From IMG/VR virus record IMGVR_UViG_3300045988_173832: a stretch of DNA of 64,000 nucleotides; one strand, written 5' to 3'. The position numbers were made by a program, and so were the translations under genes. Shown in pieces: positions 45,464 through 64,000 of this stretch. This DNA is from a virus. How positions within the stretch are numbered: the first letter of the stretch is position 1; each line of letters starts with the position of its first letter. A model generated the notes under the pieces. It ran no database searches, had not been told where the DNA came from, and saw nothing but the letters and a program-made list of their open reading frames with translations.

Positions 45464-46507
45464 ATGGCAAAAGCAGTGAAGATGCAGACATCCTCTGCAC
45501 CTAAAGTTGGAGGCGGAACAGGTAAGCGTATCATAGCACTTATACTTATGGCATCAATGATTGTAGGCTTGCTATTCCTAGCATCGATGATTATGAATCA
45601 GCGTGAAGAGTTAGTATCTGTAATGCGCCTTAAGAAATCAATTACATCTGGCACAGCAATTACGGATAGTATCTTGGAGGAATATCAGATGCCGAAGAGT
45701 ACTTATGAAACTCTTGGCTCTATTACAATGTATGATGCAAATAATAATCCATATCAGCAGCAGACTTATTTGCTTTGGCAGCAGAAGGAGCAAGTGCTTG
45801 GGATGTTTGCATCTAATTATATTGCTCAAGGCGATGTGCTCACATCAATGGACCTCACACGAACTTTAACAGTACGAAATCCATGGGTTACTGCAATGAA
45901 GGAAGATGAAGAGATATTCACGATGTCTTTTGATGCAGGTACTATTAACACACGAATGATTTACCCTGGAACTCGTCTAAGAGCTAGATTTGTATCCGAA
46001 GTACCTGTAGACAAGCTTAGTGAAGTAAAAACACAGATTGAGCGTGCAGAAAATATTGGTGATGGAACTGACGATATTGTTCACGATGCAGTAACAACTC
46101 TTCATGGTGATATCTTAGAAGACTCTGAGGCTAAGAATAGCGTACAGGTTGCTGAAGTTATTATTGATGAAATTATTATTACAGACATGACTAACAGTTC
46201 CGGTGAGAGTATTTATGACCTCTATATGAGCCTTCTCAAACTCCCAATCAATGAGCGCATCAGCTATCTAAAAACGGGTATTGGTTCAAATGATATTTCT
46301 AATAACTGGGCAGCAAGAGTTACACCTTCTACAATCACATTCATCCTCGATAAGAAATCAGCATCTCGTTTAGCAGAGTTTGAACAGACAGGTGGTACGA
46401 TTAAGTACACAATTCTTCCCGACAAGGCAGATTCTGAAGATCAAGCAAACCTGATGTCTCAGTTTGTTGAACTCAGCAACCAGATAAACACTGTTACGGA
46501 GGATTAA
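45464..46507 (+). CDS. CpaB/RcpC-like pilus assembly protein (N-terminal TM + periplasmic domain)
   Basis: Position at head of Tad-type module; topology. Confidence 0.45.
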   Translation: MAKAVKMQTSSAPKVGGGTGKRIIALILMASMIVGLLFLASMIMNQREELVSVMRLKKSITSGTAITDSILEEYQMPKSTYETLGSITMYDANNNPYQQQTYLLWQQKEQVLGMFASNYIAQGDVLTSMDLTRTLTVRNPWVTAMKEDEEIFTMSFDAGTINTRMIYPGTRLRARFVSEVPVDKLSEVKTQIERAENIGDGTDDIVHDAVTTLHGDILEDSEAKNSVQVAEVIIDEIIITDMTNSSGESIYDLYMSLLKLPINERISYLKTGIGSNDISNNWAARVTPSTITFILDKKSASRLAEFEQTGGTIKYTILPDKADSEDQANLMSQFVELSNQINTVTED

Positions 46508-46509
46508 GC

Positions 46510-61900: not shown

Positions 61901-64000
61901 ATCTTAATCAGACATTTCAAACATCACTACAATATAGTTTTTCGCGGTATCTACAGGATTACAAGAGTACAGCAACACTTCCACCATTTGCAAACGAATA
62001 CGCACTGCAGGTTCAATCTTTAGCAGAGTGGAAGACTAAGAATCCTGCAGTATCAAAACTGCTACAAAGCAAACAAGCTTCTCTCGTGTATGAGTATTTA
62101 GCAGACGATACAATAATTCTATATCCATTTGGATGGGATGATTATTATTATGATCTACACTTGTATGCCGGAGCAGGGGATACAATATACCAACATTCAG
62201 CAAGTGGAGAGGCAAATACAGAGCAGATAAATGTAGCTAGAACTAAGACATCTGTTAATTTAATTCAGACACTATTAGCTCTGCAGAAGAATACAGATTA
62301 TCAGCACAATAATCTTAAAACAACATATACTCAGCGCATAGATGAAAATCATGTAACTAGGGAGGAATTGATGGATAAGGCAAATCAGTTCTTTGACAGT
62401 CCAGTCTCAGGGCTAAGCTACATCTTAACAGGATTCCTTTATCAGATTCATGAATCTGTAGCAACTGGAGATTTTGGTAGCATATTCAACATTAGCTATT
62501 TAACAGAAACTGATGCATATAAGTGGATAATGGATAGATACATTGCATTAGTTACAATAGCTATTGCGATTGTATTATTCCTTAAGCTTATTCAATTCGC
62601 AATGAATAAGAGTAAGGATTTTGCGCACATTGGACGTTCTATTTTAGGTATCTTAGCAATGTGTATGGTCCCTGTAGTAGTCTTTAACAGTTTTGTATGG
62701 GCATTTGATGTCTCGTCAGATTGGGCGATGAAGAGTACATCAGATAAGATACTTCTTGCACAAATAAACAGATACTGTTCAGATGCAAATAATGATGGTA
62801 ATGTGACTGCAGAAATTACGGCTTTTAAACAGCAATTTAGCAGTGTGAAAGGCACATATGATTGTCTGCAGTTCGAGCAGATGACAAATTATTCACTTGG
62901 CTCCGGTCCAGTATATTCAGTAGTGCCTATTTCGGACATGATTGCAAATCTACAATATTCAACATCATATGACACATGGTACTCTAATAAATCATTTATA
63001 CCAGTCCATCAAGACTTATATAAGGATTCTTATTTCTACTTCTTTTATGACTATATTAAGCAAGAATTCTTAAAGTATTCAGCAGAGCACGATGACGGTA
63101 GTTCGGAAGTAAAACAAGCAGGCGAAAGCTTTGAAACTAATCGCAAAAGCTTAAAAGCAGGCTCTGCTGATGATATCGCAAAGGATATTAATGCAGCAGA
63201 AAATCTGTTCAGAACATCACGCGGCAGTTTCAGACGTATGCTTCTTGACACAGACTTTGTATATAAAAACTCTGTGCATGAAACACAAGAAGCAAGATAT
63301 GGTGGACCTCATGCAACTGATTTAGCAGGTATGTACATGATTTTCGATGCGTCTGCAGCAGGACAAGTTACTAAGACCCTACAAGACACAGTGTACTTTA
63401 GAGCATATACAGATGCAGATGCAATGAAGGTATCTAATGAAGGAATGATATCTGAAACATGGCTGAATCAGAATGCGATTAGTGATTATGTAGAAAAACA
63501 GATTTCTCTAGGCAAAGGTATTCGTGGTGACCCTGGAAAAGGTTCATATGCAATCTATACTTCAGGACTTGACCCATATGAAGGAACTTTGAATACAAAT
63601 GCTTATTTAACAGATGCAACAAATACAGCTACAGCACCTATTATAACACCACTCGAACAGGCGCTTATCGATGTTACAGAAAAGACATACAATCAGACAA
63701 TGACAGCTCTTAACTATCTTCCTGGACAGATGCATGATGAAGCAGCAATTGTGCTAATGGCTTATATTGCCACATTTAATCTCAATCAGGCGATGGGTTA
63801 TGAACCTCAAGCACCTTTAACACAGTCTGTTACTCTGGATGATGTTGTTTCTACAGCATTCCTAACAGACCTTGACATGATAGGCACAGAGACGAATACT
63901 CTATATGCTATGATAGCTCAAGGTGATAGTGTAGGTAAGGCAGCAATAGTTGTTATACTTGAAATAATCATTTGCTTATCATCAATATTCAGAGTACTAA
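58981..64000 (+). CDS. very large exported/membrane protein (more than 1,670 codons, partial: continues beyond window); signal peptide, internal TM cluster around 62.5 kb
   Basis: Frame 1 open from ATG 58981 to the window end (spot-checked at 60001, 61981, 63001, 63961); not in ORF track because no stop is reached. Confidence 0.5.
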   Translation, partial: MKKVIATIMAAAVMLSQLSLLVKATDGNPLAVSNRVTADINELRQREEDIKNQRAAQKAASRALINYGKTTGKTNDLSFYINRKNLTKREFEAFKWSFIFSQFAHPLEDSLLNVFDQDFFQELSKADLDIDSVRTTILNSGLVADSDDIKASSMDTDLQAMMLQDVNFNELAEVIKSNYAIYPLVDSNGTPASLDSFISGDLGLYEPFFIYDTHGTADSVNELNALLYSKDKLTDLDKNYGDKWTLTGFTTDDSAEPYKVPVLFYDSNTFLAMQMAMTIYMTNNDYSSLTEAVAFLGAQTLAVDSYGNICLQKQSGDAVIFIPNFYNTVLTSVLCEIDGGEKTKQALRETMDLFNVWFVALYSKNTRTRTTIYPAVYTTHVNGSTSKIVNPDTGEIEEKATEVLADHYAQLIGGTSHSLSRKFLLVENSIISPGEQQTQAVVDSAIDNKDDETALAFSHAAKMIAEKTLSEYIDSWFPGNMSSRPKSDASNVGTLVSPYNTHASAFMPFTANDSSKPTYFENKYPLAQAQVAFKEKDVISSDAASATNFSRFAAILENAKWKYILSPRRGSYSTHSIQSSMHAAYNDSSNMMAINPTVSLMTSLPAEQLIPDLRFVSAKKSEQSTGARTVIFLPKEILDLGQTMSAYTLSDEKGMFLSQYEVYFSGDIERFREYMLGTYNQVLGTDSGRFLTVDYDSGVLKVKSLATFNRTYLTEDTEFTLSWSTNKYTSTDFFDYVHYSIKDEYKSGHYNEGARYVYEVLKEKKDEDGNTYYENYDPTKYTVSSDEKSGDKYSFIAAYYYDSDIIDPGISTGSCSEIPTPDYKLKNDSADAKMKAGAQALWAAGAAIAGMSKDAEYGSTEGFQKLLADVCASCGFNTDEFYYMLVNIYRFNGKDNGTFGINSVYFYDEYTCLLRNGATAFSDIDCENSDDFVQTTYYWDRYYLTKQQLSQDVSDYVNKQYESIDSLVSDYENYLNQTFQTSLQYSFSRYLQDYKSTATLPPFANEYALQVQSLAEWKTKNPAVSKLLQSKQASLVYEYLADDTIILYPFGWDDYYYDLHLYAGAGDTIYQHSASGEANTEQINVARTKTSVNLIQTLLALQKNTDYQHNNLKTTYTQRIDENHVTREELMDKANQFFDSPVSGLSYILTGFLYQIHESVATGDFGSIFNISYLTETDAYKWIMDRYIALVTIAIAIVLFLKLIQFAMNKSKDFAHIGRSILGILAMCMVPVVVFNSFVWAFDVSSDWAMKSTSDKILLAQINRYCSDANNDGNVTAEITAFKQQFSSVKGTYDCLQFEQMTNYSLGSGPVYSVVPISDMIANLQYSTSYDTWYSNKSFIPVHQDLYKDSYFYFFYDYIKQEFLKYSAEHDDGSSEVKQAGESFETNRKSLKAGSADDIAKDINAAENLFRTSRGSFRRMLLDTDFVYKNSVHETQEARYGGPHATDLAGMYMIFDASAAGQVTKTLQDTVYFRAYTDADAMKVSNEGMISETWLNQNAISDYVEKQISLGKGIRGDPGKGSYAIYTSGLDPYEGTLNTNAYLTDATNTATAPIITPLEQALIDVTEKTYNQTMTALNYLPGQMHDEAAIVLMAYIATFNLNQAMGYEPQAPLTQSVTLDDVVSTAFLTDLDMIGTETNTLYAMIAQGDSVGKAAIVVILEIIICLSSIFRVL

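Follow-up and report, generated by a model that had tools for sequence, protein, structure and literature searches.

Organisation of the locus

The window analysed here is a stretch of 64,000 nucleotides from the IMG/VR record IMGVR_UViG_3300045988_173832. All of the open reading frames listed in the first-pass annotation are present at their coordinates on the plus strand. From position 45464 to the giant gene that runs off the window there is little intergenic space: neighbouring genes are separated by -52 to +73 bp, several of them overlap by 1-4 bp, and the modules adjoin without a break. This part of the window makes up the first two thirds of a single conserved operon of approximately 28 kb and 22 genes, all on a single strand, which extends from window position 45464 to approximately 73250 in window-equivalent coordinates. 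The operon boundary is marked by a triple hairpin, formed by three tandem 38-bp repeats (45330-45440, plus strand), each of them a perfect hairpin (GGCTGTAGGATAATCCTACAGCC) followed by TTTTC, with a variant third copy. No chance matches to this motif are expected, and it sits in a gap of 136 bp, the only sizeable one upstream of the module. The repeats may serve the upstream unit as terminators, act as operators, or represent a candidate oriT-like site.

The array runs on in related contigs. In L007, which is 99.93% identical to the window, the giant protein is followed by proteins of 324 aa, 566 aa (AAA_31), 499 aa and 660 aa (DUF87/P-loop_TraG), the last of which is VirB4-like, and in L010 (98.4% identical) an 811-aa M23 protein is encoded directly 3' of the VirB4-like gene. 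The entire order from the TadB-like gene to the M23 gene is kept in L033, at identities of 64% for the secretion ATPase and 35% for the giant protein, and the Tad half is conserved in relatives at ATPase identities of 37-51%.

The carrier element, matched in over 500 blocks of the assembly collection, is plasmid-like and 200-310 kb long, and is common in human gut metagenomes; all samples whose source was readable were of human gut origin. It is most likely a plasmid-like element of human-gut Bacillota, and the relative L028 encodes NrdD, which points to an anaerobic host.

A Tad-type core

The 510-aa protein at 47385-48917 is a T2SSE-family secretion ATPase of the CpaF/TadA type (Pfam T2SSE, 6e-26), with the Walker A sequence GATGSGKT at 48135. 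Its best NCBIfam match was the TadA-family conjugal-transfer-associated ATPase (1.9e-27, which is under that model's cut-off), followed by FlaI (7.5e-22) and VirB11 (1e-21), and its best match among solved structures was CpaF (2e-22), followed by DotB (8e-13) and VirB11 (1e-6). The TadA label first given to this gene, with its GATGSGKT motif, is borne out by the Pfam, NCBIfam and PDB matches, and in the profile comparison TadA/CpaF comes out ahead of VirB11. Within the family alignment, the residues of Walker A do not vary, nor do certain other charged and histidine positions.

Two polytopic proteins are encoded downstream of the ATPase. The first of these (325 aa, 48926-49903) has a cytoplasmic helical domain of the GspF/PilC/TadB type, and its family was found by hhalign to be homologous to proteins of the plasmids pHT77 (E 1.2e-5) and pAACI01 (E 2.5e-6). 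The second (314 aa, 49903-50847), polytopic by TM prediction, stands in the TadC position, shows a weak likeness to the platform family (hhalign E 2e-3), and is probably a second platform subunit. No Pfam match to T2SSF was obtained for the platform-position proteins. Of the TadB and TadC labels, the former has support from the platform fold, and support for the latter is weak.

Upstream of the ATPase, and in a TadZ-like position, we identified a 291-aa ParA/MinD-like protein (46510-47385) with a degenerate Walker A motif (PTGGTGVTT). A second TadZ-like protein (456 aa, 54248-55618) has a degenerate ParA/MinD-like domain at its C-terminus. The first protein and the C-terminal half of the second gave weak ParA/MinD-like matches (phrog_164 at 2.7e-9; AAA_31, CbiA and BcsQ at approximately 1e-4), all of them under curated cut-offs, and these matches, with the degenerate Walker A motif of the first protein, agree with the earlier reading of a TadZ and a second deviant ParA/MinD protein. 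The operon opens with a bitopic protein of 347 aa (45464-46507; TM segment 23-41), which sits where CpaB/SAF proteins sit in tad-like loci, and SAF proteins occupy the matching position in L019, L031 and L032. Pfam and PDB searches returned no match for this protein, and hhalign against the SAF protein of a B. velezensis plasmid gave an E value of 0.46; only its position and N-terminal TM segment agree with the CpaB label, which is tentative. Overall, a Tad-type core, consisting of the ATPase, at least one platform protein and TadZ-like ParA proteins, is supported.

Candidate filament subunits

The platform genes are followed by a leaderless peptide of 73 aa (50861-51082) with a hydrophobic N-terminal segment, a candidate filament subunit. 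In alignment, neither the peptide nor its relatives have a leader or the G/xxxxE(Y) motif of Flp prepilins, whereas a genuine Flp1_like pilin from L022, co-aligned with them, does show the prepilin motif; the initial label of a Flp-type pilin is tentative. Two longer proteins, each with one N-terminal TM segment, are candidate minor subunits: a 211-aa protein with a conserved VAEENCL motif (51156-51791) and a 303-aa protein (51796-52707). The pseudopilin label of the first-pass annotation is likewise tentative. We found no Pfam-level matches to Flp or TadE in the module, no prepilin peptidase motif (GxGD[..]K) in any frame of the window, and no A24-family peptidase (TadV/CpaA) among the Pfam or NCBIfam matches of the region. 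Since the candidate pilin lacks the Flp hallmarks and no prepilin peptidase was seen, filament formation is a conjecture.

The next gene encodes a soluble protein of 508 aa (52725-54251), composed of a conserved N-terminal domain, a K/P/E-rich linker, and a conserved C-terminal domain of approximately 130 aa. It had been described as MshEN/GspE_N-like, and Pfam and PDB sequence searches gave nothing in support of this label.

Membrane proteins and the giant protein

Predicted TM segments were found in four of the five proteins annotated as membrane proteins between the second TadZ-like gene and the giant gene. These are a bitopic protein of 263 aa with an acidic N-terminus, a TM segment at 132-150 and a C-terminal domain (55618-56409); a 214-aa protein with a signal peptide and approximately three TM segments (56406-57050); a 181-aa protein whose N-terminus is signal-like and which has two to three TM segments (57310-57855); and a 360-aa protein in which a signal peptide precedes an Ala/Gly-rich ectodomain and three TM segments lie at the C-terminus (57866-58948). 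The remaining protein (104 aa, 57047-57361) has none.

The giant gene begins at 58951 and runs past the end of the window at 64000. The signal peptide and late TM cluster of its product were as first described, and we correct the start to this position and the length, given as more than 1,670 aa, to 1,883 aa in full. A variable ectodomain of approximately 1,165 aa is followed by TM segments at 1198-1249, a region of approximately 415 aa, a C-terminal TM cluster at 1666-1767 that is the most conserved part of the protein, and a coiled-coil tail. The C-terminal cluster shows distant similarity to the giant protein of pXO16, which neighbours a VirB4-like gene (hhalign E 1.6e-5).

A VirB4-like block beyond the window

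The gene for the 660-aa VirB4-like ATPase starts approximately 4.8 kb past the window end, in the same collinear array. Its product matched VirB4_plasma (8.9e-15), CD1110-type VirB4 (1.8e-11), TraC (4e-9), DUF87 (1e-8) and P-loop_TraG (5e-6), with all of the VirB4-family scores lying under equivalog cut-offs. The 811-aa protein encoded directly after it contains a Peptidase_M23 domain (3.7e-13) and is conserved in L028 and L033; the ATPase and the hydrolase together occupy the interval 4.8-9 kb beyond position 64000. Between the giant protein and the VirB4-like gene lie a third ParA-like ATPase, which is the 566-aa AAA_31 protein, and a coiled-coil protein. We identified no coupling protein (VirD4, TcpA or FtsK/SpoIIIE) and no relaxase among the matches from the scanned window ORFs, or from the approximately 9.5 kb that follow the VirB4-like gene in L010 and L028.

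The first-pass annotation had recognised no VirB4, VirD4 or relaxase. For VirB4 this holds inside the window and fails beyond it; a coupling protein and relaxase were not found in the ORFs covered. Because a VirB4-like ATPase lies in the same array past position 64000, the system is no transfer machine without VirB4, but the fusion of a Tad-like module with a VirB4 module of the pXO16 type. Of the two functions originally put forward, an adhesive pilus or a DNA-transfer apparatus using a Tad-type ATPase, the second is the better, and the T4SS part that we found is a non-canonical one in the same operon, not a complete canonical system elsewhere.

Comparison with giant Bacillus plasmids

pXO16 (pBTHD789-1) is an experimentally conjugative 350-kb plasmid of Bacillus thuringiensis sv. 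israelensis, in which a canonical T4SS and relaxase are absent and the tip locus comprises two ATPases and a hydrolase (PMC9673590, PMC6199540). The best plasmid matches of the VirB4-like protein were to giant Bacillus plasmids, namely a 215-kb plasmid of B. velezensis (7e-48) and pXO16 (1e-32), with identities of only 24-31%. A similar block is found in these plasmids: a VirB4-like ATPase is encoded with a giant protein and another ATPase, of AAA or ParA-like type, and a cell-wall hydrolase and FtsK/SpoIIIE lie nearby. The AAA_31 protein matches the B. velezensis AAA protein at 2.6e-11. The element resembles pXO16, the B. velezensis plasmid and a B. subtilis plasmid of approximately 143 kb in its giant size, in the placement of nearly all genes on one strand, in the scarcity of database homologues, and, in whole or in part, in its block of giant polytopic protein, second ATPase, VirB4-like DUF87 ATPase and nearby peptidoglycan hydrolase. 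A recognisable relaxase was found in none of them, for the element among the ORFs scanned, and MOB-suite classes these plasmids as non-mobilizable. Beyond the two ATPases, most homology links are weak, with E values of 1e-3 to 1e-6 obtained from single-sequence templates.

There are also clear differences. In the Bacillus plasmids an FtsK/SpoIIIE gene is next in line, whereas none was found within 10 kb in the element, and the Tad-like and VirB4 modules of the B. velezensis plasmid are approximately 25 kb apart. pXO16 has instead a sortase/adhesin aggregation locus and no detectable Tad-type ATPase: no homologue reached E<1e-20, and the inspected 172 kb contain no gene annotated as one. Since pXO16 conjugates without a detectable one, the Tad-like half is not essential to such a T4SS. 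Conjugation of pXO16 has been observed, whereas the transfer apparatus of the human-gut element is predicted from its genes.

Comparison with Tad-like modules and type IV pili

We identified the order of a SAF protein, a ParA-like or unannotated protein, a CpaF-like ATPase, two membrane proteins of approximately 300 aa, and tiny peptides in three other plasmids. In pAACI01 this set shares a cluster and orientation with a VirB4-like gene and an SLT hydrolase; in pHT77 it adjoins MOBQ, VirD4-like, TopB, ArdC and M23 genes; and the B. velezensis plasmid carries it too. The proven conjugative plasmid pAW63 encodes a 'VirB11' ATPase within its 42-kb tra region (PMC1196294). The pAW63/pXO2 family, pHT77 and pAACI01 share with the element the order from SAF to platform proteins and one or two tiny leaderless hydrophobic peptides, and their modules adjoin VirB4 or VirD4, relaxase and hydrolase genes. 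These plasmids are smaller, at 70-130 kb, and pHT77 and pAW63 have canonical VirD4 and relaxase genes. The window version has two extra proteins (the 508-aa protein and the 456-aa ParA-like protein), and the VirB4 block is joined to it head-to-tail. To our knowledge, the function of the Tad-like module of Bacillota plasmids has never been tested.

The Caulobacter Cpa and Aggregatibacter Tad systems have in common with the module a CpaF-type ATPase, one or more GspF-fold platform proteins, a TadZ/CpaE-like atypical ParA and the gene order; in a monoderm context a secretin is not expected. In contrast to Tad/Flp pili, no Flp prepilin motif, TadV peptidase or Pfam-level match to T2SSF, Flp or TadE was found in the window, and the module is embedded in a transfer operon. 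L022, a chromosomal tad locus of the ordinary kind from gut Clostridia with a related ATPase, does have T2SSF and Flp Pfam matches, unlike the window. The thin pilus of R64 (IncI1) is a type IV filament beside a T4SS on a conjugative plasmid, where it stabilises mating pairs in liquid, and offers the best functional analogy. This role of the thin pilus is cited in PMC4027160. The R64 pilus is of type IVb rather than Tad type, belongs to a diderm host, and has a canonical prepilin and peptidase.

A possible composite mating apparatus

We consider it reasonably probable that the operon encodes a composite mating apparatus of an uncultured giant plasmid, in which a Tad-type filament machine is combined with a pXO16-type VirB4 channel. 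This composite is most likely a fresh variant, with related systems on Bacillus plasmids that are already known but unstudied. The CpaF-type ATPase would dock as a hexamer on two GspF-fold platform proteins, and would be positioned by the catalytically degenerate ParA/MinD (TadZ-like) proteins and the bitopic protein in the CpaB position. The tiny leaderless hydrophobic peptide might then be built by the machine into a short fibre or piston on the cell surface, perhaps together with the two N-anchored proteins, and a prepilin peptidase would be unnecessary. After opening of the thick wall by the M23 hydrolase, the fibre would cross it and make or stabilise contact with the recipient. The downstream gene products, comprising the small membrane proteins, the 1,883-aa polytopic giant, the third ParA-like ATPase, the coiled-coil protein and the VirB4-like ATPase, would build a translocation channel of the pXO16 ('tip') type, with DNA as the presumed substrate and the two halves acting together.

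The failure to find either a prepilin motif or a peptidase would also fit an arrangement in which no filament is made, the CpaF-like ATPase only energises or gates the VirB4 channel in the manner of VirB11, and the tiny peptides and N-anchored proteins serve as accessory subunits in the membrane. In pAW63 the homologous ATPase has always been interpreted as VirB11, and the NCBIfam VirB11 score of the element's ATPase is close below its TadA-family score; even so, we judge this arrangement improbable. Tad loci classically serve adhesion and biofilm formation, and a stand-alone adhesive or colonisation pilus might be carried as cargo, its closeness to the transfer genes being functionally meaningless, as the related ATPase of L022 and the separate modules of the B. 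velezensis plasmid might indicate. This seems unlikely given the continuity of the modules, with overlaps of a few bp at several genes, the persistence of their linkage in L033 where the giant protein is so divergent, and the presence of the module among transfer genes in pAACI01 and pHT77. The proteins are, in addition, far from ordinary tad ones, without the T2SSF and Flp matches of L022.

A jumbo phage or phage-plasmid, using the apparatus for envelope remodelling, superinfection exclusion or non-lytic release, is very unlikely in our estimation, although several features recall phages. The window contains an HK97-type major head gene (6396-7253, 5e-63), a sigma factor, a reverse transcriptase and PARG; there are two tmRNA genes, a repertoire of NrdD and DnaK type in L028, and one-strand gene orientation throughout. 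However, the capsid gene is isolated among unrelated genes and resembles the capsids of small siphophages, and no relatives of the element were found among IMG/VR or GenBank phages. pXO16 is a conjugative plasmid despite the same 'phage-like' one-strand organisation, and the VirB4, hydrolase and Tad-like set constitutes a transfer signature. Giant plasmids have been misfiled as huge phages, and the reverse (PMC12934698). Apart from the one capsid gene, no portal or terminase was found among the window ORFs scanned. The phage-type capsid gene in the window means that the nature of the element is not settled; the composite mating apparatus of a giant plasmid is the reading that we carry forward.

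Implications for conjugation in monoderm bacteria

Gram-positive conjugation is commonly held to be pilus-free, and the pXO16 type of transfer is barely understood, having no relaxase and no oriT and mobilising 'non-mobilisable' DNA. The locus described here combines a Tad-type assembly machine that looks complete with a divergent VirB4 module of the pXO16 type, and related Tad-like sets have gone unnoticed in the transfer regions of culturable Bacillus plasmids, in which genetics is tractable. This brings within reach the questions of whether a type IV filament takes part in monoderm plasmid mating, and how barely annotated elements of 200-350 kb spread in the gut. We suggest only tentatively, as a doubtful but conceivable extension, that Gram-positive giant plasmids possess a true conjugative, peptidase-independent, Tad-derived fibre of leaderless Flp-sized peptides, coupled mechanically to a VirB4 channel that works without a canonical relaxase or coupling protein. 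Such a fibre, if real, would overturn the pilus-free view of monoderm conjugation, and would represent a hybrid class of type IV filament and T4SS extending from soil Bacillus to the human gut.

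A TadA/CpaF-clade ATPase in a compact gene array

Between 45464 and the window end we identified 16 ORFs, with intergenic spacing of -52 to +73 bp. G+C content is uniform across the window (about 37%), and almost all of its genes lie on the + strand. The first ORF of the array (45464) is preceded by a gap of 136 bp that contains three tandem 38-bp repeats (45330-45440), each composed of a perfect 10-bp-stem hairpin plus TTTTC, and found nowhere else in the window. The repeats might act as terminators or operators, or represent an oriT-like site. The corresponding gap in L005, another contig carrying the locus (7981-8080), is 38 bp shorter, indicating that the copy number probably varies. 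The coordinates of the first-pass annotation, which had described a Tad/Flp-type pilus module, were right bar three amendments. The start of the giant ORF was moved to 58951; its exported product, previously given as more than 1,670 aa, has a full length of 1,883 aa; and among five proposed membrane proteins one, that of 57047-57361, has no predicted TM segment.

The gene at 47385 (+) encodes a 510-aa secretion ATPase of the TadA/CpaF clade, in agreement with its previous identification as TadA. It matched Pfam T2SSE (6e-26), its top NCBIfam model was 'TadA family conjugal transfer-associated ATPase' (1.9e-27), and among solved structures CpaF ranked first (2e-22), ahead of DotB (8e-13) and VirB11 (about 1e-6). 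Across 29 relatives there is no variation in the Walker A residues or at further charged and histidine positions. Two other proteins, previously named TadZ and a deviant ParA/MinD, gave weak ParA/MinD matches: the 291-aa protein preceding the ATPase, with a degenerate P-loop (PTGGTGVTT), and the 456-aa protein at 54248, in its C-terminal half only. TadZ/CpaE proteins likewise have atypical P-loops.

Other labels from the first-pass annotation did not hold. We found no Pfam, PDB or profile (SAF) support for a CpaB-like protein at 45464, and the protein at 52725, assigned a MshEN/GspE_N domain, had zero Pfam matches in three homologues, zero PDB sequence matches and likewise no profile support. 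The supposed pilin, a peptide of 73 aa, is leaderless, as are its homologues; each has about 20 hydrophobic residues and lacks the G/XXXXE(Y) site, unlike the Flp1_like pilin of L022, an ordinary clostridial tad locus. No prepilin peptidase motif was found in any reading frame of the window. For the TadB-like protein, only fold comparison supported assignment as a platform protein; its profile matched no PDB sequence, and hhalign gave no match to the bona fide T2SSF protein of L022.

The array continues into a VirB4-like block

The contig L007 reaches past the window end, and is 99.93% identical to the window across a 16-kb overlap. In L007 the giant protein ends at about 64602 (window-equivalent), and is followed by a 324-aa protein, a 566-aa AAA_31/ParA-like protein, a 499-aa coiled-coil protein and a 660-aa DUF87/P-loop_TraG protein; in L010, a 98.4% identical contig, an 811-aa M23 peptidase lies directly 3' of the last. 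The 660-aa protein matched VirB4 families (Mycoplasma ICE VirB4, 8.9e-15; CD1110-type VirB4, 1.8e-11; TraC, 4e-9). Thus the earlier failure to recognise a VirB4 was an edge effect, as this VirB4-like protein continues the array just past the window end.

The full order, from the TadB-like protein through the giant protein and the VirB4-like protein to the M23 peptidase, is kept in the relative L033 (64% identity for the ATPase, 35% for the giant protein), and the Tad-like half of the array is also kept in relatives with ATPase identity of 37-51%. Neither a coupling protein nor a relaxase was found among the window ORFs scanned or in the roughly 9.5 kb that follow the VirB4-like gene in L010 and L028, and no coupling protein of the FtsK type was found in that downstream interval. 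In L028, a 308-kb relative from a Hadza gut sample, the region 3' of the transfer block (11367-20987) encodes a SNF2 helicase, a glucosaminidase, NrdD, an HD protein and a DnaK-like HSP70, and NERD and GreA-like types are also present downstream of the VirB4-like gene. The presence of NrdD, an anaerobic ribonucleotide reductase, suggests an anaerobic host.

Relatives of both modules in Bacillota plasmids

A tblastn search of PLSDB with the VirB4-like protein matched Bacillota plasmids only, the best matches being 215-kb plasmids of Bacillus velezensis and B. amyloliquefaciens (27% identity over 95%, 7e-48), pXO16 of B. thuringiensis israelensis (350 kb; 24%, 1e-32) and B. subtilis plasmids of ~143 kb (31% over 62%). 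These Bacillus plasmids carry a similar block completely or partially, comprising a giant protein (1,834-2,023 aa), another ATPase of AAA or ParA-like type and a VirB4-like ATPase, with a hydrolase and FtsK/SpoIIIE nearby. The AAA_31 protein aligned to its B. velezensis counterpart at 2.6e-11. In hhalign, the giant protein's conserved TM cluster at the C-terminus aligned to the giant protein of pXO16 (E 1.6e-5, probability 79%) and less strongly to that of B. velezensis. pXO16 is a proven and very efficient conjugative plasmid, with every CDS in one orientation, few of them with database homologues, and a 25-kb 'tip' locus encoding two ATPases and the hydrolase TipB; neither a relaxase nor an oriT has been identified in it (PMC9673590, PMC6199540).

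Counterparts of the Tad-like half were identified in other plasmids. In the B. velezensis plasmid, the series SAF, ParA, T2SS-T4P ATPase and proteins of 333, 294 and 44 aa lies about 25 kb upstream of the VirB4 block. In Alicyclobacillus pAACI01 the same set shares a gene cluster and orientation with a DUF87 VirB4-like gene and an SLT hydrolase, and in pHT77 of B. thuringiensis HD73 it lies directly 3' of MOBQ, a VirD4-like gene, TopB and ArdC, with an M23 peptidase after it. The platform family of the window is homologous to proteins of pHT77 (E 1.2e-5) and pAACI01 (E 2.5e-6). The tra region of pAW63, which was the first conjugative plasmid to be sequenced in the B. cereus group, has a 'VirB11' ATPase and then two conserved hypothetical proteins (PMC1196294). 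In pXO16, a search for homologues of the Tad-type ATPase gave none at E<1e-20, and the annotation of the 172 kb inspected lists none; this plasmid carries a sortase/adhesin aggregation locus instead.

In the culturable Bacillota plasmids pHT77 (L032, 20327-20646), pAACI01 (L031, 5649-5994, -) and that of B. velezensis US1 (NZ_CP076292.1; L019, 11084-11218), one or two leaderless hydrophobic peptides of 44-54 aa directly follow the two platform-like genes (e.g. MESAISKILLIAATLVVIGAVVW...). They resemble mature Flp pilins without a leader.

Distribution and content of the element

In the assembly collection, more than 500 indexed blocks contain the identical ATPase sequence. Contigs that we inspected were typically 200-310 kb in size and from human metagenomes, including HMP, Zeevi and Hadza samples, and a few were 1.3-3.8 Mb. 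Copies of the element on long contigs include ERZ28618173 scaffold_29 (212,980 bp, 99.9% identical), Hadza NODE_16 (308,548 bp) and CDYQ01014008.1 (309,885 bp). L002 (GCA_964261755.1, CAXVQW010046525.1), a contig of 3.67 Mb, carries the exact ATPase, with the locus at 493-515 kb. These Mb-size contigs, which could reveal the host, may reflect chromosomal integration in some samples or chimeric assemblies. Genome contigs, scanned with the generic pattern GATGSGKTV only, yielded unrelated ATPases and no host.

The element is neither an Inocle (GC 24-32%, VirB4 and VirD4 present, host Streptococcus; PMC12340149) nor a Hodor megaplasmid (GC 45-47%, sortases, Sec genes, proteins >7,000 aa; PMC12934698).

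The rest of the window encodes a microbial PARG-like protein (12529-13317), a sigma-70 family factor (18971-19765), a DHH phosphoesterase (29030-30130), a reverse transcriptase (36335-37567) and a protein read from its sequence as flotillin-like (31248-32771), for which the sole database match was a weak PHROG 'lipoprotein'. A pair of full-length tmRNA genes separated by about 1.6 kb (14155-14536 and 16110-16497, +; Rfam RF00023, 110.7 and 108.4 bits) is an unusual cargo for a plasmid-like element; the ARAGORN tag peptide of the second is ANYYRITFDATEAVAA. A lone gene for a HK97-type major head protein (6057-7253; capsid domain from about 6396; phrog_422, 5e-63) encodes a protein that shares about 36% identity with the capsids of small siphophages of Streptococcus and C. 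difficile; we saw neither a portal nor a terminase gene next to it. By eye, the translations form apparent paralogue pairs (4284-5201 and 8615-9502; 22776-23489 and 23503-24219; 21559-22539 and 24526-26013), echoing the 'many paralogues' noted for pXO16.

A proposed composite mating apparatus

The region is read most economically as encoding a composite mating apparatus, carried by a giant plasmid-like element, in which a type-IV-filament assembly machine of Tad ancestry would be linked to a VirB4 channel of the pXO16 type and to a wall hydrolase. The ATPase might instead serve as an energiser only; however, its companions include a platform-fold protein, ParA/TadZ-like proteins and a CpaB-position protein, which favours a filament machine over a bare VirB11-type energiser. 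An unrelated adhesive pilus is opposed by the continuity of the operon and the conserved linkage of the two modules. A phage function would fit the capsid gene, the two tmRNA genes and the jumbo-phage-like repertoire of the window, but the capsid gene is isolated, and we found no relative of the element among GenBank phages (megablast with 45000-64000) or in an IMG/VR scan with the 499-aa protein alone. Megablast with the same interval gave no match in PLSDB either.

For the composite apparatus, we conjecture that the tiny leaderless peptide would form the filament subunit, and this would account for the missing prepilin peptidase. On the model of the R64 thin pilus and the pXO16 aggregation locus, the filament would make or stabilise contact between donor and recipient.

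Annotations of Tad-like or 'VirB11' genes in Gram-positive tra regions go back to 2005, and the system of pXO16 has also been described; this kind of system is thus known, though mechanistically unexplored. New are the head-to-tail fusion of two modules in one conserved operon, their extreme divergence, with most components escaping Pfam, and their setting in a prevalent uncultured gut element.
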